From the IMG/VR virus record IMGVR_UViG_3300046507_000435, positions 1-64,000 of that record: a stretch of DNA of 64,000 nucleotides. One strand, given 5' to 3'. A model generated the notes under the pieces. The model did not search any database and was not told the DNA's origin. It saw nothing but the letters and a program-made list of their open reading frames with translations. Below are positions 2,188 to 60,739 of the stretch, piece by piece. Source of the stretch: a virus. Taxonomy: Duplodnaviria; Heunggongvirae; Uroviricota; Caudoviricetes. Position numbers and translations under genes: made by a program. The first letter of the stretch is position 1, and each line of letters starts with the position of its first letter.

Positions 2188-2433
2188 ATGGAGCAGACTT
2201 TGCGCCGCGCCGGTGGTTCGCTGGTGATGACGGTGCCGAAAGCGTTTATCGAGCAGAACAAATTGCACGATGGATCGCGGGTGCAGCTGGAGTTGGCCGG
2301 GTCGCAGTTGACGATTCGGGCAACGCGCCGGCCGCGTTATGTGCTGTCGGAATTGCTGGCCGAAATGCCGGCGGAATTGCCGCGTGTGGAAGGCTGGGAC
2401 AGCCTGCCGGCGGTGGGATTGGAGAGCGACTAA
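2188..2433 (+). CDS. mazE: MazE/PemI-type antitoxin (AbrB/SpoVT fold)
   Basis: 81 aa. GGSLVMTVPKAF..GSRVQLELAGSQLTI is the swapped-hairpin antitoxin pattern. It lies immediately upstream of the toxin gene and is translationally coupled to it by a TAAATG overlap. Confidence 0.75.
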   Translation: MEQTLRRAGGSLVMTVPKAFIEQNKLHDGSRVQLELAGSQLTIRATRRPRYVLSELLAEMPAELPRVEGWDSLPAVGLESD

Positions 2434-2784
2434 ATGGCGTATGTACCAAGACGGGGTGACATCATCCACTTGCAGTTCGATCCGGCCAGTGGCCGGGAAA
2501 TGAAGGGCGGCCACTTCGCCCTGGTGATCAGTGACAAGGCGTTTAATGCGCGCGGCTTGGCGATGGTGTGCCCGATTTCGCAGGGCGCCGCGGCGGATGC
2601 GCGGACGCACGGCACGGTGGTGTCGCTGATGGGCGCCGGCACCGACACGGTGGGCATGGTGCACTGTCACCAGTTGAAATCGGTGGACTGGCGGGCGCGC
2701 GGCGCGCAGTACAAGGAGTCGGTCGACGCCGCTATCTCGGACGAGGTGGCGGCCCGGATCGAAGCGATCCTGTTTGGAGACTGA
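2434..2784 (+). CDS. mazF: MazF/PemK/ChpB-family mRNA interferase toxin
   Basis: 116 aa. RGDIIHLQFDPASGREMKGGHFALVISD and CPISQ...THGTVVSL are the PemK/MazF signature blocks. Confidence 0.8.
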   Translation: MAYVPRRGDIIHLQFDPASGREMKGGHFALVISDKAFNARGLAMVCPISQGAAADARTHGTVVSLMGAGTDTVGMVHCHQLKSVDWRARGAQYKESVDAAISDEVAARIEAILFGD

Positions 2785-4278: not shown

Positions 4279-5523
4279 TCATTTTGGCAACTGCTTCCCG
4301 GCCCAGGTGCGTAGCCAATTCTTGAACATAGCGCGCTCCAGGGAAACCTTGAATTCACCGGTTTCTTCATCGTAGGACTTGCAGTCATTGACGCCTTCCG
4401 TACCCACGTATTGACTGGCCAGCCGGTGCAGTTGTTCTGGCTCTAGGGCGTTGATAAGCTTGGTAATTGCGCGCGCGCGTGCGGCTTCTGACTGTTCCTT
4501 GTGAACACTGGCTTGGTTCTGCGCCAGTTCAGCTGCAGACTTAGCGGCAGCCTTCTTTGCTCGCGCCTCGGCGCGCGCCGGATCGTTGCCAATTGCGCCG
4601 CCACTTTCATAGACGGTCCGCAAATAGCCGGCCGGGTTCTCCAGTTGTCGTTCACGGTCTATGGCCTGAACGTGTTCCACAGCGCGCGCGGCGCGCTCCG
4701 GGTCTTGTATCACCCATACCAAGGCTAGCTTTTCGCCAATGCCGACTTCCAGCAAGCTCTTGAAGATAGGCGATTCGCGTACGGAATCCTCAACCGACTC
4801 GGCGCCGAATAGACTCTGCTGGACTGCCGCCTTGACCGAAAACCGAATGTCCTTGACCCTGCGCAGTTCGCGCCGATACTCCGGCTCGATTTCAATATCA
4901 GACACCTTGTTGACCTCTTCCACGGACTTCTTTATGACCTCGTTCGATAGATGCTTAAACGTGTCATAGCGAGGCGCGTCAGCACCCAGCAGCTGGCGCC
5001 AAGTATCGACGCCAATCCAGCCAGTCGAACCGACGTTCTTGAAGCGTACGCAGTTCTCCCATAAAGTCAGTGCGTAGCTACTGCTGAACTCGTTCTGAAT
5101 GCCCACGTTGATGGTGGCATAAATCTCCGGGTTTGCCAGTTCTTCGGCTAAGAATTGGGCGTACTGGTAAGAGCACACGCCGCCCTCGATGCGAGCGCCC
5201 GCCAATAACGCCATCGACTGCCAGGCCTTTTTCTTGCCGCTCTTGTTAAGAACGTCGAACGTTATGACGCAGCGCACGATATTCTCCAGGGCGGCTTTCA
5301 GGTTCTCGACGCCGCCATCCTGTCCCCAGCCTAATAAATCCAGCAGCACCGGAACGGGGATCGTGTGGACCGTCTTCGTCAGCAAGTCATCGTAGGCGTT
5401 GAGCAGCATGATGTTGACGATTTTCCTCTCCAACAGGGAGAGGTCGCCGCTCATATGGATGTGCGCCACGTTTTTCTTTAAAGGCCGCCGTGCCTTCGGT
5501 GCCACCATATTGGACTCGCCCAT
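4279..5523 (-). CDS. repA: plasmid replication initiator (Rep_3-like, iteron-binding)
   Basis: N-terminal LSLLERKIVNIMLLNAYDDLL matches the Rep_3 winged-helix signature. The gene lies immediately downstream of five 19-bp iterons and an AT-rich tract. Confidence 0.7.
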   Translation of the reverse strand: MGESNMVAPKARRPLKKNVAHIHMSGDLSLLERKIVNIMLLNAYDDLLTKTVHTIPVPVLLDLLGWGQDGGVENLKAALENIVRCVITFDVLNKSGKKKAWQSMALLAGARIEGGVCSYQYAQFLAEELANPEIYATINVGIQNEFSSSYALTLWENCVRFKNVGSTGWIGVDTWRQLLGADAPRYDTFKHLSNEVIKKSVEEVNKVSDIEIEPEYRRELRRVKDIRFSVKAAVQQSLFGAESVEDSVRESPIFKSLLEVGIGEKLALVWVIQDPERAARAVEHVQAIDRERQLENPAGYLRTVYESGGAIGNDPARAEARAKKAAAKSAAELAQNQASVHKEQSEAARARAITKLINALEPEQLHRLASQYVGTEGVNDCKSYDEETGEFKVSLERAMFKNWLRTWAGKQLPK

Positions 5524-5544
5524 GCGCTTCCCTCCCCTATCGCC

Positions 5545-5661
5545 GGTACAAAACCCGGACCTTACGGTACAAAACCCGGACCTTTCCCGTACAAAACCCG
5601 GACCTTATATTTCCGCTTACGGTACAAAAACCGGACCTTTCCGGTACAAAACCCGGACCTT
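5545..5661. repeat. iteron array of the plasmid-type origin (oriV)
   Basis: Five direct copies of GGTACAAAACCCGGACCTT at 5545, 5566, 5588, 5621 and 5643. The 5588 copy begins CGTACA and the 5621 copy has an internal AAAAACCGG variant. Spacing is 21-33 bp. An AT-rich region (5670-5770) follows. Confidence 0.8.
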
Positions 5662-5777
5662 TCGCGTTGCACTATATAAGGTGTAAACGCTTTTAAAGCT
5701 GTTGTATTTCTAAACAGAAACAACAACAAGATTCTCGTTGGTGTTTTTTTTAAAAAATCACAAAGCCCCCTCTTCCG

Positions 5778-6308
5778 CTACTTCTCCAGATCCTTGAGCA
5801 TTTTCGCCACGGTGCGCTCAATCGAATCAAGGCAAATCGCGTGTATCGACTTGCTGGTTGACCGTTCTAGCAAGTAGGAGAGCTTCATGTGCAATTCTTC
5901 CGGCAATCGCATACTGAAAATCACTTTAAGCCGAGGGTCTGCTTTTGCCCAAGGATACCCTTTTCCGGGCGCTGACGGCGTTTTTGCCTCACTGGTGGCA
6001 TCTGGGGTTGGTGAATGATCTGTTTCGCTCTCTACGGACTGCGAGAGCGCTTCATAGCCTGCTTTGCCGTTGCCGCCCATCTTGCCTCGATTGGAAATTG
6101 CCGCTATTGCAGGCATGGTCGCGGTGGCTTCTGCTGCTGCCGGCTCTGGCCCTAACTCGGCGGTTACGGCTTCGGTCACTTGGCCAGGGGTGTAGCCTGG
6201 GTCGGCCAGTTTAGAGGCGGCTAGCTCCCTCACCTGCTCTTCGGACAATGGTTTTGGCGGCACTGTTGGCGGCCGGAACGCTGGTCGTGCATTTTTGCTC
6301 ATGCCCAA
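5778..6308 (-). CDS. ParG-like ribbon-helix-helix centromere-binding protein
   Basis: C-terminal MRLPEELHMKLSYLLERSTSKSIHAICLDSIER has the RHH (Arc/MetJ/CopG) pattern. It lies directly downstream of parA with overlapping stop and start. The N-terminal part is Pro/Ala-rich and looks disordered. Confidence 0.55.
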   Translation of the reverse strand: MGMSKNARPAFRPPTVPPKPLSEEQVRELAASKLADPGYTPGQVTEAVTAELGPEPAAAEATATMPAIAAISNRGKMGGNGKAGYEALSQSVESETDHSPTPDATSEAKTPSAPGKGYPWAKADPRLKVIFSMRLPEELHMKLSYLLERSTSKSIHAICLDSIERTVAKMLKDLEK

Positions 6309-6967
6309 ATCTCCTTGTAAATTGCCTCGGCTTCGGCGATGGCCTTATTATCGAGCGCAGGCAGCTCATCGAGCGACATGCCAAATTCGGCCACATCGAA
6401 ATAGGCCACGCGCTGCGGAACCATTGGCTCCAGCAACTGGTATTCTGGGCAATATTCCAGGATGAATTCCCTTACCCGGTCCTCTCGCTTGGAATTCGGG
6501 TTGGTCGACACGGCGTTGAGGAAAGCGATCGCCTGCAGCTTTGCGTTGACAATGCGTGTGTCGGCAATGGTTTGGCTCATGGATGCCATAGTCGCTGTAT
6601 CGAACCTGGCCGGCCGGCACGGTGTCACCAGTTTGTCTGCGACAGTCATGGCTACGCGCAACTCAACCGAATTAGATCCGGCGCAGTCCACAATGATGTC
6701 GTCGTAGCGCGGCTTCAGGTCCAGCAGGCGCTTGGCGATGCTGTTTCCGGTCAAGGTGATGCAGTTCAGTGGCGGCTGCAGCGGTGCAAGCCCCTCCTCT
6801 TTGCCGTAGTTCTCGCGCTGCACCGCAAAATCATTTGCCGAGCCCTGCGGATCTACGTCCACAACCAGCACGTCACGGCCAGCTTTCATTCGCCACACGG
6901 CATTGTTTGCCGCATGCGTCGATTTGCCGGAGCCGCCCTTCTGCCCTCCAAAAATAACTATTGCCAT
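6299..6967 (-). CDS. parA: ParA/Soj-family partition ATPase (small type Ib)
   Basis: MAIVIFGGQKGGSGKST is the deviant Walker A. DVDPQGS is the ParA motif. AAGGGG lies 7 nt upstream of ATG 6967. The track ORF extends to 7033. Confidence 0.85.
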   Translation of the reverse strand: MAIVIFGGQKGGSGKSTHAANNAVWRMKAGRDVLVVDVDPQGSANDFAVQRENYGKEEGLAPLQPPLNCITLTGNSIAKRLLDLKPRYDDIIVDCAGSNSVELRVAMTVADKLVTPCRPARFDTATMASMSQTIADTRIVNAKLQAIAFLNAVSTNPNSKREDRVREFILEYCPEYQLLEPMVPQRVAYFDVAEFGMSLDELPALDNKAIAEAEAIYKEIWA

Positions 6968-7105
6968 ATTGATCCCCTTAAAAAGTGAGTAAACCGCAAT
7001 GTTTATTATGGACATCAATTTACCTAATGGCAAGTGAATTCGTGCGAATTGGTGCGATTCGATTCGGATTGATTCGAAGTGAGTTTAAGTGAATTGGTTC
7101 GGATC

Positions 7106-7278
7106 GATGTGACACGGAATGATGTGACACGGAATGATGTGACACGGATTGATGTGACACGGATTGATGTGACACGGAATGATGTGACACGGATTGATGT
7201 GACACGGATTGATGTGACACGGAATGATGTGACACGGATTGATGTGACACGGATTGATGTAGATCGATTCCGTGTGAC
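7106..7278. repeat. centromere-like tandem array (parC/parS) upstream of parA
   Basis: Ten tandem 15-bp units GATGTGACACGG(A/T)AT, ending in an inverted CCGTGTGAC copy. A second GTGGTG-rich repeat block follows at 7280-7380. Confidence 0.75.
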
Positions 7279-7381
7279 TTGGTGTGGTGTGGTGCTATGT
7301 GGTGCTATTCAACATAGCTTGGAATTGCTTCTATAGCTTCGTGTGGAGTGGTGTGGTGTGATATGGTGCTATAGGGGTGAT

Positions 7382-7585
7382 CTACTGAAGATCGTCTAGG
7401 GTCGATTTCAAGGCTAGTAGATCAATCGCATTACGCAGCGTCGGGTGCCAGTCATTCGTACCCAGGATGCGCACCGCAGGCTTGCCGCCGGCCATGCCGC
7501 AAACGAAGCCGCCCGCCCGTTCCAGCAGGTCGAGGCGGGCGGTGTCGTCCAGCTGGGCAGGTGTCTTACTGGCGCGCCTGGCCAT
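7382..7585 (-). CDS. hypothetical small protein (leftward early operon)
   Basis: 67 aa with ordinary composition. Last gene of a run of minus-strand small ORFs. Confidence 0.35.
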   Translation of the reverse strand: MARRASKTPAQLDDTARLDLLERAGGFVCGMAGGKPAVRILGTNDWHPTLRNAIDLLALKSTLDDLQ

Positions 7586-7803
7586 AGACTTCAGGGTGCA
7601 GGGAAGGGTGGTGCCACGGCAGCGGCGCCGGCGTAGGCAGCGGTGCGCCTTGTGATATGGCGATGATGTCTTTCACCAGCGCGATGAGTTCGCGCCGGTT
7701 GAAGTGGAAGATGGCGCCGCCGCTGCGCTTGTGATGGGCGTTCGCCCGGTTCAGGATCAGGCTGGGCGTGACCGGAACGGGTGGCGTGAACCGTTGTTTT
7801 TTC
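7566..7803 (-). CDS. hypothetical small protein (GTG start overlapping the upstream stop)
   Basis: A GTGA overlap with the stop of the 7802..8368 gene. The upstream part of the track ORF (7566..8162) is R-rich junk, so only the distal 78 codons are proposed. Confidence 0.25.
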
Positions 7804-8368
7804 ACGCCGCCAGTGCCAGAGCCGGTTTCGACATGATAGCCTGTAATGCCTCGGGCCACTGCGTCCCGATCGGGAAACTGCGGTAGGCGATCGGCTCGCT
7901 GGCGAGCGACACCTGCAGCCGTGGGGCTTCCTTGTCGGTGCCGGGCGTCCATACCAGTTTCAGCAACGCTTCCAGGCAAGCGGCGTTGCCGGCCTGCACC
8001 GCCATCGTGGTGCGCATCTGGTGCAGGACATGCAGCGGGTCGCATTCGGTGCCCGGCGGGAAACCCGCCGCCGCGCAGATATGGTCGTAGAGGGTCTGCA
8101 GCAGCTGCTCGGTGGTGGTCTTGCCGACTTCCTTGAAGACGTTGCGGGTCGCGTCCATGCACTGGTCCGCAGCCTCGGTATCGATGCCGTCATCGGACAG
8201 GCAGGCCTCCAGCATGATGCTGGCGGCACGGTCCATGATGGTTTGCTGACGTTTGATGTAGTCAGCCTGGTTGGCTATCTGCTGTTCCAGCGCGGCGATG
8301 TAGGCCGCCGCCTCTGGCGAATGGGGAATGGCTGCGTCAGGACGCGGCTGGGCAATCGGAGCTGTCAT
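7802..8368 (-). CDS. hypothetical protein
   Basis: 188 aa with protein-like composition (Y, D/E, Q). No recognisable motif. Confidence 0.5.
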   Translation of the reverse strand: MTAPIAQPRPDAAIPHSPEAAAYIAALEQQIANQADYIKRQQTIMDRAASIMLEACLSDDGIDTEAADQCMDATRNVFKEVGKTTTEQLLQTLYDHICAAAGFPPGTECDPLHVLHQMRTTMAVQAGNAACLEALLKLVWTPGTDKEAPRLQVSLASEPIAYRSFPIGTQWPEALQAIMSKPALALAA

Positions 8369-8618
8369 GGTGTGGTTGGATGTCGAGTTGGTATTGGTTG
8401 ATGGTTTGCAGCAGCGCGGAGCGGTACTGGGCCTGCGACTGGAACGTCATGGCATAGGCATCGCTGGCCACCAGCGCGTGGATCTCGCGCAGCGCTTGCG
8501 TCGGCGTCATGGCCGGCTCGGGCGTTTGGTAAGGGGTCATATCGGGAAGGGTGGGGCGTGGCTGGCGCAACAGGATTGCGCCGATGCCGCAGGCAAGCGT
8601 GGTCAGTAGGCCGGGCAT
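8337..8618 (-). CDS. hypothetical protein
   Basis: 93 aa, Q/Y-containing and coding-like. The overlapping frame 8365..8790 is R/H-rich and rejected. Confidence 0.4.
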   Translation of the reverse strand: MPGLLTTLACGIGAILLRQPRPTLPDMTPYQTPEPAMTPTQALREIHALVASDAYAMTFQSQAQYRSALLQTINQYQLDIQPHHDSSDCPAAS

Positions 8619-8621
8619 GAA

Positions 8622-8873
8622 TCAGACGGTGGCGGGTCGTGCATCGCCCTGTAGCAGATCGTAGGCGGCCTTCATGCCCGTGGACACCTGGCCATCCTTG
8701 TTGGGCACGATGGTCAGCATGCACACGCCGGCATTCTGCGTCAGCGGGACATCGACCGCGATCAGGGCAGGCATGTTGTGCGCCTTGCAAGCAATCTTGA
8801 GCTTGGTAATCAGCGGCTCAATCTTGGTGGTATAGGTTACGTCGATGCCGGTGGTGCTTTTCTTCTTGGTCAT
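8622..8873 (-). CDS. hypothetical protein
   Basis: 83 aa, lysine-rich N-terminus. Compact spacing with neighbours. Confidence 0.45.
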   Translation of the reverse strand: MTKKKSTTGIDVTYTTKIEPLITKLKIACKAHNMPALIAVDVPLTQNAGVCMLTIVPNKDGQVSTGMKAAYDLLQGDARPATV

Positions 8874-8890
8874 GCGGTGCTCCTTCGCGG

Positions 8891-9115
8891 TTAGAAAGTG
8901 AACAGTGGGGCCGATGGCTGGGCCAGTGGCTGGCGCGGGCCGTGGTGTTGGTCGTTGATGATCAGCACGGCGGCCGCCACCACCACCCAGATCGCCACCC
9001 AGACCAGCTTTTCCTTGCGGGGCATGGGGTGGAGGCAGGGCGGGTAAGGGGCGCCGAGTGGTGTTGAGGCGGTCATGCTGTACTCCAGTGAGCTAACGGG
9101 AGGGCAAAGCGGCAA
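8891..9115 (-). CDS. small membrane protein
   Basis: A single strongly hydrophobic helix (LVWVAIWVVVAAAVLII). First gene of the leftward operon. An AT-rich promoter region lies upstream (9230-9320). Confidence 0.4.
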   Translation of the reverse strand: MPLCPPVSSLEYSMTASTPLGAPYPPCLHPMPRKEKLVWVAIWVVVAAAVLIINDQHHGPRQPLAQPSAPLFTF

Positions 9116-9325
9116 GAGATAAGGCGGCCTACGTTCCCTGGCCGTCGAGGGTATGGGCCTATCCCTGCCCTCTGACCCGTCGGCCGCCTTATCTCTTGCG
9201 CCTTGCCCGGAATGTTGTAGGCAAGTGGAAAACTACAACTTTTAATTGCAACACAGGCGAGTATATATCAATTTTTTATTGTAATCACGCGGCTTCGTTG
9301 GAGTCTTTCCAATAGGTAACAAAAA

Positions 9326-10387
9326 GTGGCTGTTTTCGTTGTTGATAAGGCTATATACTTCCGCGATAACCCGGAGAAACAACTTATGCTAGGGAGCTTG
9401 CCGCTCTACCGCCATCCCACCATCACTGTCCTGATCGAGGGATCACACGAAGCCGTCGATGCCCTGTGGGCTCGGCTGGACCCTGCGCTCATGGTCCATG
9501 TGGCGGCCGATCCCGCCGCCGCCCAGGCGAGCATCGAGATCAGCACGGAGGCGCTGCATCAGCTGGGCGACCCGATCGTGTTGCTGGACCCGGACATGGT
9601 CAGCGCCGCTGCCGCGCTGGACGATCGCCTGCACTCCATTTACCGCTACATCGCGGGGCCGCAGCGCTTCTGCGCGCCGGCCGTGGTGGTGGTCGAGTAT
9701 GATGCCGCCAGCCGCGGCATGGTGGCCTGCGAGGAAGTGTCGAGCGTGCCAGGCAAAAAGATCTGGTACACCGCCTCCAGCAACAGCCAGGAGGGCATCG
9801 ATGCCTTCAATCAGCGCTGGATCGATCGCTTTGTGCGCAATGACCAGGTGGAATCGGTGAGTCAGCTTGAGAAAGAGATAGTGGTTTTGCAGAATGAATA
9901 TTTCATGGACCGTTCGCGCCAGCTGGGCGAGGTCGAGGCCGACTCCGACGCCTACAGCTTCCTGTTCGACCCGGATTTTGTCGCATTGGTCGATGACCTG
10001 GCTGACCGCTACGGCTTTGTCGAGCATTACCTGTTCTGCGCGCCCAGCGGGTTGCTGTTCTTTGATGCCGACGCCAATCCCACCTTGATGGCGGTGCACA
10101 CCGAGGACAGCATGGTGCGCCAGTTCGAACTGGCGCGGGATCTGAGCGCCCCGGCCGACCTGCTGCAGGACATTTTCGAGTGCCGGGTGGTGCCGTTTTG
10201 TCTGGAGGCGATCGGCGCCGCGCCGCAGGCCGATGCGGGCGCGCTGGAGCGCGGCTGCCGGCCGGCGTCGGTTTGTCGCGGCCGGATGGACTATTACTGG
10301 GCCTTGTTCGATCTGCCGCCGGCGTTCCGCAAGGCGGAACCATTTTCCCATGCGCGCTTCATGCGCGACTACAGCGCGGTCGCCTAG
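9326..10387 (+). CDS. hypothetical protein with an N-terminal receiver-like (CheY-like) segment
   Basis: 353 aa, D/E/F/Y-rich and normal-looking. ITVLIEGSHEA and DPIVLLDPDM resemble receiver beta1/beta3 strands, a weak match. The antisense ORF 9443..10351 is R-rich. Convergent with the luxR-family gene. Confidence 0.5.
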   Translation: MAVFVVDKAIYFRDNPEKQLMLGSLPLYRHPTITVLIEGSHEAVDALWARLDPALMVHVAADPAAAQASIEISTEALHQLGDPIVLLDPDMVSAAAALDDRLHSIYRYIAGPQRFCAPAVVVVEYDAASRGMVACEEVSSVPGKKIWYTASSNSQEGIDAFNQRWIDRFVRNDQVESVSQLEKEIVVLQNEYFMDRSRQLGEVEADSDAYSFLFDPDFVALVDDLADRYGFVEHYLFCAPSGLLFFDADANPTLMAVHTEDSMVRQFELARDLSAPADLLQDIFECRVVPFCLEAIGAAPQADAGALERGCRPASVCRGRMDYYWALFDLPPAFRKAEPFSHARFMRDYSAVA

Positions 10388-11559
10388 CGCGTTTCCCGGC
10401 TGATCAGCCCCATGCGCAGCGCCACGTCGACCAGTTGCGGCGTGGTGTCGGCGCCCAGCTTCTTCTTCATGAACTTGATGCGCCGATCGATGGTGGGGAT
10501 GCTCATCGCCGTGATGGCGGCAATTTCCTTGCGCCCCTTGCCGCCCAGCATCAACCCGATAATTTCGATGTCATTCTCGGGCAGCGCGCGCTCATAGCGC
10601 GAGGTGGCGTAGCGCGCCGGGCTGGCCAGCATGCGCTGCATCAGCTGGTGCGCCAAGGCGGCGAGGCGGCGCAAATTTGGCTCGATGCCGGCCAGCTCAT
10701 GGTCACTGATGGCGGCGTCCGGGCGCGACAGCACCAGGGCCGCCGTGCCGTCGGTGGAGCGCATCAGCCAGCCCGACCCAATGCCATTCTCCATGGCCAG
10801 CGTCCAGAAGGCGGCGTTTTTGCCGCGTTGCTCACGCGCGCTCCATGCGGCCGGCCCCAGCCCGCCATGCAGGCGCGGGTCGATCATGATCAGGTGTTCG
10901 CGCTGATAGACCTCCTGCCACCGCCCCAGAAAATTGTCTTCCACCACCAGCGCGCCCGGATCGAGTGGGTCATGGGCCAGTGCCAGCGTGTGGTTAAAGC
11001 CAAAGCGCTCGCGCGCCAATTTGGCGATCTGCGAGAACTGTTTATTGTCGGGCAGCTGCGCCAGGCCCGGCAACACCCTGTCGGCCCATGCCTCGGTGCC
11101 GTCGCGGTGATCTGGATGGGTGGGGGGTAGGTCGGGGATGACCGCAATGTTGGTCACCGGCATCGGCTGCGACGCCGGCCTGGCCGGGCGCGCCGGTGCA
11201 GCTGTGATCGGGTGCCACTGGCGGCGGCGGCGGATCTTGTTCAATGCAAAACAGGTCAGGGCGTCTTGCGGCAGGGCAGTCTGCCCATCGGGCGCCAGCA
11301 GGACGATATTCGATTCAATGCCATCCGCGGTGACCACGAAATCATGGGCGCGCTCATCGTAGTACCAATGCCAGCGTAGCCAAACCGGCGCATGTTGCGG
11401 TCCCAGCCACTCGCAATGGCCCGCCATCTTGGCAGGCAGCATGCGCCGCAGCTGGAGCAACATGGCGTCATCCAGCTCGGTCGAAATTCGGCGCGGGAGC
11501 AGGGCGGCGAGGTCTTTGCGAGTGATGCGAACTGCGGTTTCGTGGGTGTTGCCGGTCAT
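10384..11559 (-). CDS. LuxR-family autoinducer-binding transcriptional regulator (possible internal start at 11163)
   Basis: C-terminal LPENDIEIIGLMLGGKGRKEIAAITAMSIPTIDRRIKFMKKKLGADT is a LuxR-type HTH (GerE). The preceding about 170 aa (QFSQIAKLARERFGFNHTLALAH...AAFWTLAMENGIGSGWLM) look like an autoinducer-binding domain. The ORF also carries a 130-aa N-terminal extension. Confidence 0.75.
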   Translation of the reverse strand: MTGNTHETAVRITRKDLAALLPRRISTELDDAMLLQLRRMLPAKMAGHCEWLGPQHAPVWLRWHWYYDERAHDFVVTADGIESNIVLLAPDGQTALPQDALTCFALNKIRRRRQWHPITAAPARPARPASQPMPVTNIAVIPDLPPTHPDHRDGTEAWADRVLPGLAQLPDNKQFSQIAKLARERFGFNHTLALAHDPLDPGALVVEDNFLGRWQEVYQREHLIMIDPRLHGGLGPAAWSAREQRGKNAAFWTLAMENGIGSGWLMRSTDGTAALVLSRPDAAISDHELAGIEPNLRRLAALAHQLMQRMLASPARYATSRYERALPENDIEIIGLMLGGKGRKEIAAITAMSIPTIDRRIKFMKKKLGADTTPQLVDVALRMGLISRETR

Positions 11560-11771
11560 TTTGAACTTGGTCTACGTCAAAGCGGATGGCAGTGTACCGT
11601 AGAAAACGAGTGTTGAATATCGGAAATTTTGTGCCGGCTGATAGCTTACTATCACGTTACAAGTTTTGCAATCGGGTTGGATGATAGTTAACAGCTGTTG
11701 CAATGAATTCACGAATGCTGCAAAGTGCCTACTTGTTTTTTTAATGCAACTAATTTTGGCAAGGCGATCGC

Positions 11772-12026
11772 ATGGCACATGGCAGCGTAGGCAACGGCGC
11801 AAGCTTGAATGGAATGGATTTTGGCGCGATGACGCAGGACGAGGCGCGTTCGTTCATGAACGGCTGTTTTGACAAGATGACGACCGCCTCGCGCGTCTAT
11901 GTGATGGGGGTCATGCTGGCCTGCAGCACCCAGTTTCCCAGCGCGGCGCCAGCGCATGGGCACACGCCGGCGCCCAAGCCAGTCCGCTTGCGCCTAGTGC
12001 AGGCTAGCGGCGGGCTTCGCGGGTAA
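11772..12026 (+). CDS. small ORF divergent from luxR and abutting the repressor gene (candidate LuxR-controlled effector)
   Basis: 84 aa, Met/Cys-containing and coding-like. Divergent from luxR across a 212-bp AT-rich intergenic region containing palindromes. Its 3' end overlaps the convergent cI-like gene. Confidence 0.35.
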   Translation: MAHGSVGNGASLNGMDFGAMTQDEARSFMNGCFDKMTTASRVYVMGVMLACSTQFPSAAPAHGHTPAPKPVRLRLVQASGGLRG

Positions 12027-12422
12027 TTCTTCGGCAGGCTTCTTCTGGATCATCGCGGCCGACAGCAGCAGCTGCTGCTTGCCCAAGTCGGTACCTTCAC
12101 GGAAGTGCGACAGCAGCACCGCCTCCTGCACCGTATCGACGTACATCAGCAGCAGCGGCGGTACCGCTGGCGGCGGTGGTGGCGGCAGTTGCTCCGGTGC
12201 CTCGCCGAAACGCAGGTAGGTTGGCGTGGTGTGCAGAAAGGCGGCGATTTTCGGCAGCAGCTTCGCGCGCGGGTACTGTTCCCCGGCCAGCCACTTGCTG
12301 ACCGCTTGCGGGGTGCAGCCGGCGGCGCGCGCCAGCGCCGACTGGTTGCCCTCGGCGTGTTGGTCGAGCAACTTCTGCAGTCGCGCCGCAAACTCGGCCA
12401 ATTCAACATTTGATGTGTTCAT
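11994..12422 (-). CDS. CI-like XRE-family HTH repressor without a peptidase domain
   Basis: LARAAGCTPQAVSKWLAGEQYP is the HTH_3 signature. A poly-Pro linker follows (PPPPPPAVPP). Only 142 aa, with no S24 LexA-like C-terminal domain. Divergent from the cII-like gene. Confidence 0.7.
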   Translation of the reverse strand: MNTSNVELAEFAARLQKLLDQHAEGNQSALARAAGCTPQAVSKWLAGEQYPRAKLLPKIAAFLHTTPTYLRFGEAPEQLPPPPPPAVPPLLLMYVDTVQEAVLLSHFREGTDLGKQQLLLSAAMIQKKPAEELPAKPAASLH

Positions 12423-12613
12423 TGCAATAGATTACAACGTTTCGTTACATCCCGCACTTCAATAATTAATTGTAGAAACTGGCGTGACATTGTAATATTT
12501 CGTTTAATAAATTTACCAGATGGAAACAGCCCTTGGAATGAGGGGATTTTGCCGCGCGCGCACGGCCCCATCGGGCATCAGGGTTTAACTTTTTACTAAC
12601 AGGCAGGCTTGCA

Positions 12614-12928
12614 ATGACCGACGTACCCGCAACACCGACCAACGAAGAATCCAGTCTTGACTACTCCCGGCTCCCCATGTTCGGCGAGGACGAAGTATCA
12701 CCGGAAATCATTGATCGCACGCGCAAAAACAGCGCGATTATTTTGCAAAGTTTGAACAACCTGGGCGCCAGCCGCATCGCTCGCATCATGGGCATCCATG
12801 ATTCCGCCATTTCCCGCTTCAAGACCCACGGCATGCTGATGTGGGTGAGTCGCCTGTTCGCATGCCTGGGCCTGAAGATCGTGCCAGAGTCGGCCATCGT
12901 CTACCTGCAGCCCGAGGAATACAAATGA
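12614..12928 (+). CDS. CII-like transcriptional activator
   Basis: LGASRIARIMGIHDSAISRFKTHGMLMWVSRLFACLGLKIV parallels lambda CII (GVDKSQISRWKRD...FSMLLAVLEWGV). The position divergent from the repressor fits. Confidence 0.45.
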   Translation: MTDVPATPTNEESSLDYSRLPMFGEDEVSPEIIDRTRKNSAIILQSLNNLGASRIARIMGIHDSAISRFKTHGMLMWVSRLFACLGLKIVPESAIVYLQPEEYK

Positions 12929-13054
12929 CCGCCCGGCCGTCGCCAGACGCGCAGGGCGCCACCGCGCCGGATGTCATTCCGGTCGAGCCGGCCCATGTCA
13001 TGCGGCCGGAGCAATACGCCCAGCAGCAGCGCCAACAGGCGTAAATCGCTGGAC

Positions 13055-13092
13055 GAAAAAAAACCCGGCGGCAACCGGGTTTCCCTTTACTT
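13055..13092. terminator. rho-independent terminator (A-tract / hairpin / T-tract)
   Basis: AAAAAAAACCCGG-cggcaa-CCGGGTTTCCCTTTAC after the cII-like operon. Confidence 0.45.
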
Positions 13093-13099
13093 CTAACCC

Positions 13100-13441
13100 A
13101 TGAGAACTATGGATAAGCAAATTCTACCAGAGCGGGCCAACCCGGCCGAGCAAATTGCATTACGCACAATTGCGGACAGTCGCGGTGGCTTGACCATCAA
13201 GGCCATCCAAGAACAGAACGGCGGCCGCTCAGGCATCTTGCAAGCGGTCCTGCGCAGCGCGCTCGACCAGCTCGTTGCAGAAGAGATTCTGGAATGCGAG
13301 AAGCCCAGCCGCGGCCCCGCCATCTACTTTCTGCCATATCAGAAACCGAGCCCCTGCCTTAAAAGCATACCGGCAGCTAAAGCGCGACCCATCCGTGTGC
13401 CGCAATGCAACTGGCTGGCTGCATTGGGAGTTCAGGCATGA
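13100..13441 (+). CDS. hypothetical phage protein
   Basis: 113 aa. Stop overlaps the MTase start (ATGA). Confidence 0.4.
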   Translation: MRTMDKQILPERANPAEQIALRTIADSRGGLTIKAIQEQNGGRSGILQAVLRSALDQLVAEEILECEKPSRGPAIYFLPYQKPSPCLKSIPAAKARPIRVPQCNWLAALGVQA

Positions 13442-26134: not shown

Positions 26135-26336
26135 AGCGCAAAGTATACAGAGCCACCCCTGAAATCAGACCGAAACACTGCACGGGCGCGGCCGCAACAG
26201 GTATGCGAGATTTTCCGCGCAATTTAGTCCTCGCAAAACCCGCACAAAAGCCCGTAAAATTCGCCTCAATTCGATAGGTTGAAAAACTGACTCTTGCGAA
26301 AAGCGCCGTAAAGAAGGCCTTTCAAGAGCATCGAAT

Positions 26337-26414
26337 GCTGCCATAGCTCAGTCGGTAGAGCGGCCGAGGAAAACGTACTTGGTGGCGTCGCTGGTTCGAG
26401 TCCAGCTGGCAGCA
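26337..26414 (+). tRNA. tRNA-like sequence with an aberrant anticodon arm (possible pseudo-tRNA)
   Basis: Good acceptor stem (GCTGCCA/TGGCAGC), D arm (GCTCAGTCGGTAGAGC) and T arm (GCTGGTTCGAGTCCAGC). The 27-nt region between them cannot be folded into a normal anticodon stem-loop. Confidence 0.3.
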
Positions 26415-26564
26415 ACATCGCGGATCAGGTTTGGTGGTGCCGTGTAAAGGCCGGCGCCATATAGCCCTGACGTAGGCGCCAAGCCTGATCCGCCCCCCAG
26501 AAAAAGTAAGGTGCGCGCCCGGTAGCCGGCAGATAGCCGGCGCTGCGGCCCGCACCGAACCCAA

Positions 26565-26640
26565 TGTCATGTAGCTCAGTTGGTAGAGCGTCGGATTGTT
26601 AATCCGGTGGTCGCTGGTTCGATCCCAGCCGTGACAGCCA
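26565..26640 (+). tRNA. tRNA-Asn (GTT)
   Basis: 76 nt. Acceptor TGTCATG/CGTGACA, D arm GCTCAGTTGGTAGAGC, anticodon arm TCGGA-TTGTTAA-TCCGG, T arm GCTGGTTCGATCCCAGC, encoded CCA. Confidence 0.9.
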
Positions 26641-26648
26641 GAACACAT

Positions 26649-26722
26649 GCGGGTGTAGCTCAATGGTAGAGCGGAAGCCTTCCAAGCTTACGACGAGGGT
26701 TCGATTCCCTTCACCCGCTCCA
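26649..26722 (+). tRNA. tRNA-Gly (TCC)
   Basis: 74 nt. Acceptor GCGGGTG/CACCCGC, anticodon loop CTTCCAA, T loop TTCGATT, encoded CCA. Closely parallels enterobacterial tRNA-Gly(UCC). Confidence 0.9.
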
Positions 26723-30592: not shown

Positions 30593-31090
30593 ATGTTTGA
30601 ATATGCAATGAACGCAGTCCAGAACGCTGGCCAACCATCAGCAGCCGAGAACGAATACGCCACCGCATGGCATGCACCAGACGGCACCACCGGCGCAACA
30701 GGCAATGCCATGGGCGGCGCCTCCGCAGCGCCAGGCGCCACCAGTACCGGCCAACTGGGCGGTGGCGGTGGCGACGGTTTCATGGCTGGCGCAATGGCCG
30801 CTCCGGGCGCCACCAGCAGCGGCCAGCTAGGTGGCGGCGGTGGCGACGGTTTCATGGCTGGCGCAATGGCAGCGCCGGGCGCAACCAGCACCGGTCAACT
30901 TGGCAGTGGCGGCGTTGACGCCATGGGCATGGCCGGAGCAGCCGCCAAGCCTGGCGCCATGCCAACCATCGCACCAGTCGCGCCGACGCCAGCATCGAAA
31001 CCCTCCAGCGCCGAAGAATATGCCAGCGCATGGCACGGCAACGCCAGCCCCAAATCAAGCATGGGTGGCCCGCGCAACATGCTCCGATAG
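30593..31090 (+). CDS. Gly/Ala-rich repetitive protein
   Basis: Three tandem copies of DGFMAGAMAAPGATS.GQLGGGGG, encoded by about 60-bp DNA repeats at 30763-30900. Confidence 0.4.
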   Translation: MFEYAMNAVQNAGQPSAAENEYATAWHAPDGTTGATGNAMGGASAAPGATSTGQLGGGGGDGFMAGAMAAPGATSSGQLGGGGGDGFMAGAMAAPGATSTGQLGSGGVDAMGMAGAAAKPGAMPTIAPVAPTPASKPSSAEEYASAWHGNASPKSSMGGPRNMLR

Positions 31091-53199: not shown

Positions 53200-54900
53200 A
53201 TGGGTTTGAGTCTCGCAGGGGTAGCCGCCGGCTACCAGGGCTATGCCAACGAAACCGCGCGGCTGGCTGAAGAAGATCGCCGCGCCAAGGCCGAGCAGCG
53301 CGCCGAACAGGACGCATCCTTCCAAGAAGAGTCGCGCGGCCGCCAGCGCACCGACTGGCAGGAGCAGGACCGCATCAAGGCGGATCGCAAGCGCGACATC
53401 GCCGCCGTCAACGCCAAGTACGATGGCGCGGCCGATGCCGGCAGCGGCGCCGCCGACCAGGCGCTGGCCCAGCAGCAGGTCAAGGATGACCAGACGCAGG
53501 CCCAGATCGACGCCGCCCAAGCCGCGCCAGCCGACCCGACCGTCGCCGCGGTGAGTGCCGCGCCCGCAGCGCCGGCTGACTCGATCGTCACCGGCGCCGC
53601 CACGCCCGCATGGGCCAAGGCCGCCGGTGTCACGTCGGCCAAGCCCGACTCGGTGGTGCAAGACCCCGCCATCGCGGCCAAGCTGCGCGACCTGGCGCCG
53701 CCGGCCGGCGTACCCAAGCCACGCAGTTTCAACGACACGCTGGCCAAGCAGTCGGAGCTGCTGCGCCTGGCAGCCGATCGGGGCGACCTGAAGCCGCAGG
53801 ATTACGCGCAGGGCATGCAGCTGCTGAACACCATGCGCACCGAGGGCGTCAACGATGCCCTGAAAGCCTTCAGTGCCGGCGACTACCAGGGCGGCATGGA
53901 CGCCTTCAACCAGATTGGTAAGAACCGGGGCAGCCGCATCGTCAGTGGTGCCGAGGGCGTCACCAAGATCAACGGCCAGGATGTACCGACCCACTTTGTC
54001 ACCATCGCCAACCCGGACGGCTCGCAAACCGTCATCGATTCGGCCCGCGCGCAATACCAGCTGCTGGACTTGAATTCCCAGCTGGCCCACGTCGACCGCG
54101 CCCGCCAAACCGACATGCAGGCCCGTCAGCACGCCGACCAGATCGCGCTGGGCCGCGACCAGCTGGCGCAAAGCGCCAAGGACGCCGCCGCCGGCCGTAG
54201 CCTGCAGGCCCAGCAGCTGCAGCTCACCCGGATGCAGTTCGATGCCAGCACGCCACTGGGCAAGATCAACTCCATGAGCGCCGCGCTAAAGCAACCGCTG
54301 AGCACCGACCAGATCGAAAACCTGCTGGGCGTGTCCAAGATCCCGCGCGCGGTCGAGCTGCAAGTGCAAAGCCTGATGAAGGAAAACGACACCGAGAGCC
54401 AGGCCATGGCGCGCGCGATCGCCTCGCCGGAAGGCATGAACCCGGCCGCCGCCGCCACGTTCCAGAAGAACGCCGCGATCCGCAACGGCAAGCTGAACCA
54501 GCTGCTGCAACCCTACTCGGGTGGTGCCGCCAAGGCCGGCGGCGCCAGCGCCGACCCGTTGAACCTGAACGGCCAGCTGCGCGGCACCATCGTGCCCAAT
54601 CCACTGCTGGCGCCGGCCGCCGCCCCCGCCGCTGCGGCGCCGCAGCCGGTGCTGCGCCAACCGGCCGGCCTGCAGGCCGCTGTGGCGGCCGCACCGGTCC
54701 CGGTCGGCACCGTCACCGAGGGCGGCGGCGTGAACGTCGTCAACGACCCCATCCTGACCTCGCTGCGCAAGACCATCGGCGGCATCGATATGCAAGACCC
54801 GAAGAACCTGGATGTCATCACCAAGTTCGGCAAGGCGCGTAACGACCGCATCGCGCAGCTGCAAGCCAACTACGGCACCACCAAGTTGATCACCGACTAA
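53200..54900 (+). CDS. coiled-coil virion protein (candidate internal/ejection protein)
   Basis: 566 aa, E/R/K/Q-rich, helical with a Pro/Ala-rich C-terminus. Directly precedes the giant gene. Confidence 0.45.
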   Translation: MGLSLAGVAAGYQGYANETARLAEEDRRAKAEQRAEQDASFQEESRGRQRTDWQEQDRIKADRKRDIAAVNAKYDGAADAGSGAADQALAQQQVKDDQTQAQIDAAQAAPADPTVAAVSAAPAAPADSIVTGAATPAWAKAAGVTSAKPDSVVQDPAIAAKLRDLAPPAGVPKPRSFNDTLAKQSELLRLAADRGDLKPQDYAQGMQLLNTMRTEGVNDALKAFSAGDYQGGMDAFNQIGKNRGSRIVSGAEGVTKINGQDVPTHFVTIANPDGSQTVIDSARAQYQLLDLNSQLAHVDRARQTDMQARQHADQIALGRDQLAQSAKDAAAGRSLQAQQLQLTRMQFDASTPLGKINSMSAALKQPLSTDQIENLLGVSKIPRAVELQVQSLMKENDTESQAMARAIASPEGMNPAAAATFQKNAAIRNGKLNQLLQPYSGGAAKAGGASADPLNLNGQLRGTIVPNPLLAPAAAPAAAAPQPVLRQPAGLQAAVAAAPVPVGTVTEGGGVNVVNDPILTSLRKTIGGIDMQDPKNLDVITKFGKARNDRIAQLQANYGTTKLITD

Positions 54901-54919
54901 TTAACAGGATTCCACCCGC

Positions 54920-60344: not shown

Positions 60345-60683
60345 ATGGACATAGCGACACTGGCCGCCCAAGCGCGGCACCACTGGACCACCTGGCTGCC
60401 GGCCAAGACGGCGCGGCTGCAGTCGGAGGGCACGCTGACGGAAGCGACGCAGGCGGCCGCGAAGGCGGCGCAGCAGCAGATCAGCGAGCTGATGAGCCTG
60501 CACGGGCACAAGGAGCACGAAGCGCTGGAGTCGGCGCTGAAGGACCACATCCTGTTACCGCCGGAACCGCCAAGCGCGGACGACTGGGAAGCGCAGGAGC
60601 TGAACGCCAAGGAAACGCAGTACCAGCAGATGATGCGCGCGGCGCAGCCCCGGATCGATCCGTCGGACGAGCGCGTGGTGTAA
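60345..60683 (+). CDS. 113-aa ORF in a different frame (separate small gene, or the frameshifted C-terminus of part A)
   Basis: Clear coding GC3 (nearly all third positions G/C). Protein-like sequence MDIATLAAQARHHWTTWLPAKTARLQSEGTL...DDWEAQELNAKETQYQQMMRAAQPRIDPSDERVV. The frame opens only 10 codons upstream at a TGA (60315-60317). Confidence 0.4.
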   Translation: MDIATLAAQARHHWTTWLPAKTARLQSEGTLTEATQAAAKAAQQQISELMSLHGHKEHEALESALKDHILLPPEPPSADDWEAQELNAKETQYQQMMRAAQPRIDPSDERVV

Positions 60684-60739
60684 CGCCGGCGGCACTGGCC
60701 GCCCAAGCTGAGCCGGCCGCCCCGGCCGTACAGCGCACC

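Follow-up and report, generated by a model that had tools for sequence, protein, structure and literature searches.

A LuxR-type receptor fused to an RsaM domain, and a conserved small gene, beside the cI-like repressor gene of a phage-plasmid: a candidate quorum-sensing input to the lysis-lysogeny switch

The DNA analysed here is a stretch of 64,000 nucleotides (the window) from the IMG/VR virus record IMGVR_UViG_3300046507_000435, which its gene content identifies as a podovirus-like phage-plasmid (plasmid-prophage) of ~77 kb. Beside the gene for its cI-like repressor, the element carries a gene for a chimeric regulator in which an RsaM domain is fused to a LuxR-type receptor with a predicted pocket for acyl-homoserine lactone (AHL), and a divergent small open reading frame (ORF) of 84 amino acids (smORF) that is under purifying selection. 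A further gene, convergent with that of the chimera, encodes a homologue of the LqsR/JqsR/PhcX response regulators. We propose, as somewhat more probable than all other readings taken together, that this region is a sensory add-on to the lysis-lysogeny switch, in which the AHL-bound chimera would activate the smORF, and the smORF protein would inactivate cI and so lead to lysis. An earlier note on this DNA, made from its letters alone, had described a phage-borne LuxR-type receptor wired next to the immunity repressor. That observation appears largely correct and its central interpretation plausible; its argument from a recurring sequence motif fails. The features on which the argument turns are as follows.

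Regulatory region (positions in the window)
9215..9238: inverted repeat TTGTAG-N12-CTACAA, with half-sites of the type found in the operators between cI and cII
9349..9359 (+): GGCTATATACT block, -10-like, about 27 nt upstream of the LqsR-like ATG
9386..10387 (+): LqsR/JqsR/PhcX-family response-regulator homologue, 333 amino acids, with an N-terminal pseudo-receiver and an LqsR-type output domain
10384..11559 (-): RsaM-LuxR chimeric regulator gene, 391 amino acids; Pfam DUF4902, Autoind_bind and a weak GerE match
11215..11538 (-): its RsaM/DUF4902 domain, residues 8-115; PF16245, E 2.2e-9, 37.7 bits against a cut-off of 25
10639..11040 (-): its autoinducer (AHL)-binding domain, residues 174-307; PF03472, E 2.7e-10, 40.4 bits against a cut-off of 23
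10420..10572 (-): its LuxR/GerE-type helix-turn-helix (HTH), residues 330-380; GerE at 16.3 bits plus profile alignment
11639..11654: distal 16-bp palindrome TGATAGCTTACTATCA (TGATAG-N4-CTATCA), with TGATAG invariant in eight aligned regions
11682..11692: promoter-proximal box TGATAGTTAAC, invariant in eight of eight regions and unique in the window
11698..11726 (+): weak sigma-70-like promoter, TTGCAA-17 bp-CAAAGT, facing the smORF, with TTGC and GCAAAGT invariant
11772..12026 (+): smORF, 84 amino acids, candidate antirepressor, shared in position by 13 elements; unmatched in Pfam and PHROG
11994..12422 (-): cI-like repressor, 142 amino acids; HTH_3 (PF01381) E 1.6e-8, with matches to PHROG repressor families
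12432..12496: operator-like repeats between cI and cII (TTACAACGTTTCGTTACA, ACTTCAA-N7-TTGTAG and ACATTGTAAT), overlapping PR-like and PRM-like promoter matches
12614..12928 (+): CII-like regulator, 104 amino acids; PF05269 E 1.1e-4, PHROG 725 E 1.4e-13

The chimeric receptor, the small gene and the DNA between them

The 391-amino-acid regulator is built of an RsaM/DUF4902 domain, an AHL-binding domain and a LuxR-type HTH, in that order, and its gene overlaps the convergent LqsR-like gene by 4 nt. The earlier note had expected an autoinducer-binding domain followed by a GerE HTH, and both are there: the former matches PF03472, and the HTH is aligned over its full length by a profile of seven homologues. 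Compared with PDB sequences, this profile matched RhlR (E 1.8e-15), QscR, SdiA, LasR, CviR and TraR across the ligand- and DNA-binding domains, with an alignment that extends through the HTH of RhlR, QscR and SdiA and of GerE (1fse, E 7.8e-5). Two homologues, P0002 and P0003, have precomputed PF00196 matches, and the recognition-helix motif T-x-DRR is invariant among the homologues. AHL receptors have six hallmark ligand-pocket residues, which in TraR numbering are W57, Y61, D70, P71, W85 and G113. The corresponding W214, Y218, D227, P228, W239 and G259 of the chimera align with RhlR W68, Y72, D81, P82, W96 and the Gly of YGL, and all six are invariant in the seven homologues. By this alignment the chimera is a LuxR-type receptor with an intact predicted AHL pocket.

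The N-terminal extension of about 130 amino acids that the earlier note had pointed out also exists. It is the RsaM/DUF4902 domain, which the note had not recognised and whose fusion to LuxR is on record from Massilia (PMC10710839), and the seven-homologue profile aligned it with RsaM BCAM1869 (PDB 4o2h, residues 4-105, E 2.2e-11). DUF4902 defines the RsaM proteins. These are dominant regulators of AHL systems, acting negatively by a mechanism that is unresolved, and are usually stand-alone proteins of 140-170 amino acids, encoded by a unit of their own adjoining luxI and/or luxR (PMC10710839). Unlike these, the RsaM domain here is fused to the receptor. Such full-length chimeras are rare: an exhaustive HMMER search of 1.84 billion representative proteins returned ~9 clusters, ranked after which were ordinary LuxR and RsaM proteins, and a word-indexed search of 5.8 billion proteins returned five. 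Among the GTDB species-representative genomes no match was found to the chimera peptide patterns or to a 22-base pattern of box and promoter. As the earlier note had stated, there is no sign of a luxI partner: PF00765 had no match among the ~52 window ORFs scanned with Pfam (for ten more structural ORFs the scan was against PHROGs only), and no luxI was present in the precomputed Pfam annotation of the relatives' neighbourhoods; ~13 kb of the 76,960-bp source element lies outside the window.

The smORF is divergent from the LuxR gene across a gap of 212 bp, and over its last 33 nt it runs antisense to the 3' end of the cI-like gene, the arrangement that the earlier note had reported. It was found at the same place and in the same frame in 13 elements, with pairwise ratios of nonsynonymous to synonymous substitution (dN/dS) of 0.24, 0.25 and 0.16, indicating purifying selection. 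The proteins are 17-64% identical and have three features in common, namely a core (R-S-x-L-L-x-x-F-D-x4-A-S-x-x-Y-L-L-G-V-A), a Pro/Ala-rich linker and a motif near the C-terminus, (R/P)-x-LRLV, which is missing only from L008 and reads LQLV in L016. A Shine-Dalgarno-like AGG, 10-14 nt upstream of the start, forms a conserved ribosome-binding site, and the GC content at third codon positions (GC3) is high. Nine clusters make up the family: seven sit on contigs of ~72-78 kb, the other two on short ones. Purifying selection, conserved peptide motifs and the conserved ribosome-binding site together mark the smORF as a real gene for a functional protein. We also considered whether the LRLV motif is a by-product of the overlapping cI codons and rejected this, because the C-terminal residues of cI that lie opposite are not conserved; the constraint thus belongs to the small protein. 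The 3' overlap with cI measures 12-39 nt in most elements and 12-50 nt over those that have it; it is 4 nt in L008, and L020 has none. No convincing intrinsic terminator was found between the smORF and cI, the sole terminator-like match (11847..11862, inside the smORF) being weak, and such matches occur near chance frequency.

Alignment of eight LuxR-smORF intergenic regions, which are 58% identical outside the invariant blocks, revealed four such blocks: TGATAG, the left arm of the palindrome; TGATAGTTAAC; TTGC at 11698..11701; and GCAAAGT at 11720..11726. These blocks have stayed the same while the proteins on either side diverged by more than 50%. The TGATAGCTTACTATCA palindrome is a putative binding site of a dimer of the chimera and has no second match in the 64-kb window, even with up to 2 mismatches. 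The TGATAGTTAAC box lies 43 bp from it, directly upstream of the -35-like hexamer of the element at 11698..11726, which would be the smORF promoter. A sigma-70 consensus scan called no promoter for the smORF, though it found PR- and PRM-like ones, which in our reading means that the promoter needs an activator rather than that there is none. Inspection by eye did not show the published JAI-1 motif, TTGA-N6/7-TCAA (PMC5080296), in the LuxR-smORF region, which has only a TTGA-N12-TCAA beside the LuxR start codon.

The same promoter geometry is kept in three elements that differ in their regulators, L016, L019 and L020. The TGATAG boxes occur in all elements that have the RsaM-LuxR regulator and are absent from L019 and L020, which have no LuxR gene; L016, whose regulator has a differing HTH, carries a variant box, TGATG-N6-CATCA, and a proximal ATGATGAC followed by TTGC-N18-GCAAAGT. 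That the boxes track the regulator gene is the strongest available support for the proposal that the chimera binds there and controls the smORF.

Another repeated sequence did not hold up. The earlier note had taken TTGCAATG, which indeed occurs at 11698, at 12420-12427 (-) and at 12609, together with TTGCAAT, as a possible link between the two regulatory regions. Three copies of TTGCAATG compare with 3.1 expected by chance in the window, and seven copies of the 7-mer TTGCAAT with 8.6 expected. Two of the three TTGCAATG copies get their ATG from start codons, and the copies are concentrated where regulatory DNA is richer in AT. TTGCAA is palindromic and looks like a -35 hexamer. In the relatives TTGCAATG is not conserved, only the TTGC of the 11698 copy being invariant. 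With a chance-level count and no conservation, the motif was rejected as a link.

The cI-like protein consists of an N-terminal HTH_3, a Pro-rich linker and a short conserved C-terminal domain (~50 amino acids) with the motif LL-x-H-F/Y-R-E-G-T-x-x-G-K-x-Q-L. In Pfam it matched HTH families only, and Peptidase_S24 gave no match even at E<=1. Lambda-type CI has a C-terminal Peptidase_S24 domain for RecA-stimulated self-cleavage; unlike this autocleavable CI, the repressor here is predicted to be non-cleavable and, having no autocleavage domain, would need an antirepressor route. Across a gap of 191 bp the CII-like gene, which the earlier note had also named and which starts at 12614, is the first gene of the rightward early operon. 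The promoter-like matches in this gap lie at 12484..12513 (+) and 12496..12469 (-). The operator motif, TTACAACG-N3-CGTTGTAA and CTACAA-N7-TTGTAG, is distinct from the TGATAG boxes. The operator repeats are conserved in the relatives, and the site in L007 is a perfect palindrome, TTACAACG-TTT-CGTTGTAA. The inverted repeat at 9215..9238, which lies upstream of both the LqsR-like gene and the leftward operon, probably marks a second operator region for cI; L002, L004 and L007 have repeats of the CTACAA/TTGTAG type at this place, as all relatives do in their cI-PR region. A Cro-like gene between cI and the CII-like gene is missing in the window's clade (12423..12613), and the more distant relatives compared (L007, L008, L011, L012, L019 and L020) have a YdaS/HTH gene of 66-77 amino acids there.

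Recurrence of the block and its LqsR-like companion

The order of genes, with the LqsR-like gene and the RsaM-LuxR gene convergent, the smORF divergent from the latter and convergent with cI, and cII (in some cases preceded by cro) divergent from cI, recurs in at least ten related phage-plasmid contigs. The loci with the block are L002, L003, L004/L005, L006, L007, L008, L011, L012 (Massilia antarctica GCA_026627205.1) and L013, in which LuxR identity to the window falls from 73% to 42%. The earlier note had proposed searching related phages for the same genes and had made its reading depend on conservation of the small ORF; what was found is this recurrence and, for the small ORF, 13 elements with dN/dS of 0.16-0.25. 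In L011 (9926..11157; IMG/VR contig of 72,364 bp) two overlapping ORFs, of 228 and 298 amino acids, take the place of a single chimera gene, which indicates a frameshift or an assembly error. The most distant full-length chimera, P0057 (375 amino acids; L014, 157..2011, on a 3.2-kb metagenome contig), is flanked by a divergent gene for an 81-amino-acid Arc-like ribbon-helix-helix protein and a convergent gene for a 115-amino-acid Peptidase_S24 protein. Here, too, a phage-type switch may be present, with some other small partner.

Scanning IMG/VR with a cI profile detected relatives that have no LuxR gene. In L019 and L020 (71,210 and 70,830 bp; 5200..8500 of each) cII, the Cro-like gene, cI and the smORF are kept, neither a LuxR gene nor an LqsR-like gene is present, and the promoter-like hexamers are still there; in L020 a cI-operator-like TTACAACG lies just upstream of them. 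An intermediate form is found in L016 (IMG/VR contig of 49,000 bp), where a 210-amino-acid regulator with DUF4902 (E 6e-10) and GerE (E 3.3e-6) is encoded at 6769..7401 beside the cI-smORF pair. It has no autoinducer-binding domain and a different recognition helix, and L016 has no LqsR-like gene. Two proteins of 221 amino acids (P0043 and P0044) gave the same two-part match in the exhaustive HMMER search. Since the smORF and cI are kept where the regulator genes are missing, the smORF is the core partner of cI and the two regulator genes are a sensory cassette, inserted in one lineage upstream of the small gene and at an insertion point identical in all elements. The variable loci of transcription factor and smORF (TF-smORF) described by Silpe et al. 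(PMC10432266) follow the same logic.

The convergent gene had been labelled receiver-like, with a start at 9326, in the earlier note. The label holds as far as it goes, but the note had missed the family, LqsR/JqsR, which belongs to a second quorum-sensing system, and the start needs revision: the true start is most likely ATG 9386 and not GTG 9326 (353 amino acids), because gene callers and all homologues begin there and a GGAGA ribosome-binding site (9374..9378) stands 8 nt upstream. Ahead of this site lies the GGCTATATACT block, whose core GCTATATACT is kept in all eight upstream regions compared and which is a putative promoter element. Neither Pfam nor PHROG gave a match for the window protein (353 or 333 amino acids). 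A profile of 20 homologues matched LqsR of Legionella (PDB 6sy9) with E 5e-62 over its full length (profile positions 4-333), and the AlphaFold2 model (pLDDT 84, pTM 0.81) gave in Foldseek a single strong match, again 6sy9 (E 1e-18, TM 0.70/0.75).

The 21 detectable homologues fall into two groups, the phage-plasmid copies and the chromosomal response regulators of Massilia, Janthinobacterium and Gallionellaceae, which carry PF00072. On the Janthinobacterium chromosome L009, the homologue P0020 is encoded directly behind a HisKA/HATPase kinase and near a divergent class I/II aminotransferase, the published jqsA-jqsS-jqsR order of an alpha-hydroxyketone system (PMC3566124, PMC5080296). Neither a kinase nor an aminotransferase turned up among the window ORFs scanned or in the relatives' neighbourhoods, and the gene here is an orphan. 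The receiver is degenerate in the window's clade: the acidic pair DD is changed to EG, the acceptor Asp to Glu and the Lys to Arg, while the Thr is retained. The window protein thus has LIEGS for LIDDS and VVEY for VVDY; P0010 has Ala at the acceptor position, and three phage-borne relatives (P0014, P0016 and P0017) retain the Asp residues. The output domain of the LqsR family has a degenerate GGDEF-like fold, and its mechanism is unresolved (PMC10653808). The LqsR-like gene is present in all ten related elements that have the three-domain regulator; it is absent beside the two-domain regulator of L016 and beside the distant chimera of L014.

A conserved hairpin (9108..9205, ~95 nt, 22-bp stem), in which 13 of 29 predicted pairs are maintained through two-sided changes in six related elements, separates the operator-like repeats from the first gene of the leftward operon. 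It matches no Rfam family; it could act as RNA, in the 5' untranslated region of the leftward transcript, or be a structure of the DNA itself. A permissive Rfam scan of 8800..13200 yielded sub-threshold chance matches only.

Proposed mechanism and its alternatives

In the mechanism that we favour, the chimera would bind AHL, dimerise on the TGATAG boxes and activate the weak promoter TTGCAA-17-CAAAGT, so that the 84-amino-acid protein is made. As no luxI is present in the window, the AHL would be supplied by the host or by neighbouring cells. The small protein would inactivate cI and release PR, leading to lytic development independently of SOS. Where transcription of the smORF runs on into cI, which is convergent with it, antisense pairing or collision may interfere further. 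Dimerisation, in-cis restraint of the receptor, or both are the probable contribution of the fused RsaM domain; this domain can evidently stand in for the ligand domain as a regulatory or oligomerisation module, since it is the only non-HTH domain of the L016 regulator. Modulation of the receptor, or of its expression, is the probable part of the LqsR-like protein, which would connect the host alpha-hydroxyketone (Jqs) system to the switch. This protein may be a co-factor, as XRE is for LuxR in Apop (PMC10432266), or its gene may instead oppose LuxR expression through the tight convergent overlap; the variants that retain the Asp residues may receive phosphate from host JqsS.

Several observations weigh against this mechanism. 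The single-sequence GerE score of the chimera is under the Pfam cut-off of 23.5 bits, and its AlphaFold2 model, built on a 5-sequence alignment, is poor (pLDDT 60, pTM 0.36) and uninformative on domain contacts. LuxR solos can bind non-AHL ligands despite conserved pockets, and some other protein may be what binds the TGATAG boxes. In Pfam, PHROG and the cluster search the smORF resembled no known antirepressor, and its presence in relatives without any LuxR gives it a role that does not depend on the receptor. Finally, sequence does not fix whether the output would be lysis or lysogeny, and prophage LuxI/LuxR systems that activate lysogeny programmes rather than lysis are reported in a recent preprint (PMC13345283).

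The last two points bear on a module of opposite sign, which we consider unlikely, in which regulator and smORF would reinforce lysogeny or superinfection immunity at high signal, the small protein stabilising or assisting cI or blocking an incoming phage. The sequence fits either sign of regulation, relatives without LuxR still have the smORF as a core partner of cI, and RsaM-type domains are negative quorum-sensing regulators (PMC10710839). However, all characterised TF-smORF modules on plasmid-like phages induce lysis (PMC10432266), a smORF convergent with cI and overlapping its 3' end is expected to hinder rather than help cI expression, and a repressor without an S24 domain needs some route of antirepression. 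It is just as unlikely, in our judgement, that the chimera and the LqsR-like protein are accessory manipulators of host quorum sensing whose position beside the immunity region is incidental, acting as signal sinks, decoys or dominant-negative partners of host LuxR/JqsR that might, for example, damp density-dependent phage defence. Both proteins are homologous to quorum-sensing components of Oxalobacteraceae hosts (PMC3566124, PMC5080296), the receiver has lost its catalytic residues as a decoy would, an RsaM domain alone represses AHL systems, and the cassette is missing from close relatives, as cargo would be. Such a role would not predict a conserved DNA-binding helix or invariant, phage-unique boxes placed exactly at the cI-linked smORF promoter, which co-vary with the regulator, nor an insertion point that never varies.

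An output carried mainly by RNA, with LuxR-controlled transcription entering cI and lowering its expression by collision or antisense and the 84-amino-acid product secondary, seems improbable, if compatible with the 3' overlap in most elements and with the lack of a convincing terminator between the two genes; selection acts on the protein, whose motifs and ribosome-binding site are conserved, and the two mechanisms can coexist. We give hardly any credence to the 84-amino-acid ORF being a chance frame and the LuxR gene a degenerate remnant. GC-rich sequence does yield many spurious ORFs, and the JGI annotation has merely a 49-amino-acid version of this one (P0034), but position, frame and motifs are conserved in 13 elements with dN/dS well below 1 and high GC3, and most elements have an unbroken LuxR ORF whose pocket residues do not vary.

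A more elaborate form of the lysis-inducing mechanism, which we hold to be rather unlikely, would join two quorum-sensing languages in one switch, AHL through the RsaM-restrained receptor and alpha-hydroxyketone through the LqsR-type regulator, with the smORF protein as a novel type of antirepressor that would bind the non-cleavable cI and tether it to ClpX for degradation through its (R/P)xLRLV tail. The SspB adaptor has a tail, …RGGRPALRVVK, that tethers it to the N-domain of ClpX; this sequence was confirmed in 8et3. The Pro/Ala-rich linker and (R/P)-x-LRLV of the smORF proteins resemble it, as in …ARPALRLVRG of L003 against …GRPALRVVK of SspB. The likeness is at the level of the motif, with no homology in the body of the proteins and with 8-13 residues after the motif in several smORFs, and we treat it as a lead only. 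If this two-language reading were true, the chimera would show that RsaM acts by direct contact with LuxR-type receptors.

The phage-plasmid, known systems and significance

The earlier note had called the element a temperate phage, which stands, and had missed its plasmid-prophage nature. The plasmid side of the window holds the following features.

Plasmid-side features (positions in the window)
2434..2784, within 2188..2784 (+): PemK/MazF-type toxin gene, E 3.9e-21
4279..5523: Rep3-type initiator
5544..5663: five direct repeats of 21-22 bp, CGGTACAAAACCCGGACCTTT, beside the Rep3 initiator gene, probably iterons
6299..7033: ParA
7100..7260: array of a 15-bp repeat, 10.7 copies, CGGATTGATGTGACA, beside ParA, probably the partition site

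The short ORF ahead of the toxin gene is probably its antitoxin, and the array at 7100..7260 produces two long spurious ORFs at 7020..7336. The phage genes are those for the large terminase (TerL), portal/adaptor, major head protein, internal virion protein and tail fibre, with a GP4-type podophage fibre and an SU10-type adaptor as further ones. The Pfam scan found tyrosine recombinases among the window ORFs and no member of the protelomerase (telN) family, again with ~13 kb of the element outside the window; one of the remaining ORFs, scanned together, carries a SET domain. Three tRNA genes (Phe-GAA, Asn-GTT and Gly-TCC) are clustered at 26336..26722, and a 72-bp tandem repeat (30725..30912, 2.6 copies, 83% matches) lies inside the ORF 30593..31090. 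Two very long minus-strand ORFs, 54890..59848 (1652 amino acids) and 59930..62032 (700 amino acids), occupy the GC-richest part of the window (up to 73% GC); their GC content at first codon positions, 0.88 and 0.78, is above GC3, which is unusual, and they have no Pfam match.

Against the deposited phage genomes of INPHARED, blastn gave no match at the DNA level. The relatives are on contigs of 72-78 kb, two of them in IMG/VR. Relatives in Massilia assemblies and the Janthinobacterium/Massilia homologues of the LqsR-like protein point to Oxalobacteraceae (Betaproteobacteria) as the host lineage.

TF-smORF modules are known from the Aeromonas phages ARM81ld and Apop, in which LuxR activates a counter-oriented small gene whose product inactivates cI (PMC10432266, PMC6456758). 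The earlier note had likened the layout here to ARM81ld and to VP882, and comparison with the related elements supports this: with the LuxR gene and the smORF beside cI and ~2.4 kb from ParA, the locus fits the TF-smORF arrangement on a plasmid-like temperate phage (PMC10432266). Shared with the XRE-LuxR-smORF loci of ARM81ld and Apop are a phage-borne AHL-type LuxR without a luxI partner, a plasmid-like prophage, par genes nearby and a counter-oriented small ORF, whose product there shuts off cI and causes SOS-independent lysis. The differences are considerable. The partner there is XRE; here no XRE partner gene is present, the receptor is joined to an RsaM domain, and the gene convergent with it encodes an LqsR-type pseudo-response regulator; the module here abuts and overlaps cI itself, and the repressor is of the non-autoproteolytic type; the smORFs have no detectable sequence similarity, and the host lineage here is Betaproteobacteria. 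The TF-smORF phages are linear, with telN and repA, whereas the window has a Rep3/iteron replicon, podovirus-like structural genes, tyrosine recombinases and no protelomerase among its Pfam-scanned ORFs. VqmA(Phage)-Qtip of VP882 likewise pairs a phage quorum-sensing receptor with a counter-oriented small antirepressor gene (a candidate one here) on a plasmid-like prophage (PMC10432266), but it differs in receptor family and signal (VqmA/DPO), in its repA-telN locus and in an autoproteolytic cI.

The chimera itself has been met before. Rare 'type 8' RsaM-LuxR chimeric LuxR solos were recorded in two Massilia species (Venturi et al. 2023, PMC10710839), with the same domain order (DUF4902, autoinducer-binding, HTH) and no adjacent luxI. 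They were treated as chromosomal, and the review gives no phage or plasmid context, smORF, cI or LqsR-like neighbour and nowhere uses the word 'phage' (PMC10710839). The chimera-carrying contig of the Massilia antarctica assembly GCA_026627205.1 has the gene block of the window, and the reported chimeras may belong to the same family. The LqsR-like protein has the full-length sequence and fold of LqsR (Legionella), JqsR (Janthinobacterium) and PhcX (Ralstonia), a receiver with a degenerate GGDEF-like output (6sy9; PMC3566124; PMC10653808). In contrast to theirs, the gene here is an orphan on a phage-plasmid: its neighbourhood has neither an lqsA/jqsA synthase nor a kinase, its partner is a LuxR-type gene, and the window's clade has other residues in place of the catalytic Asp-Asp, Asp and Lys. 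In the literature searched, no paper linked LqsR-type regulators or RsaM to phages. Phage LuxR-smORF modules and the RsaM-LuxR fusion of Massilia are thus already known; what appears undescribed is the phage-plasmid context of the fusion, the dedicated boxes predicted at a cI-linked smORF promoter, the companion LqsR/JqsR-type pseudo-receiver and the modular series of related elements.

Phage quorum-sensing receptors that decide on lysis are known only from a few plasmid-like phages of Vibrio and Aeromonas, and the locus described here would extend the principle to another type of phage, another replicon and Betaproteobacteria of soil or freshwater. An RsaM-LuxR fusion with a readable target promoter and boxes is a compact system for testing direct action of RsaM on a receptor, and the LqsR/JqsR-type regulator, from a family whose output mechanism is unresolved (PMC10653808), is a second feature new for phages in the literature searched. 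The related elements form a natural series, from smORF only through RsaM-HTH to RsaM-AHL-HTH with an LqsR-like gene, that is useful for dissecting how sensory inputs join a phage immunity switch.

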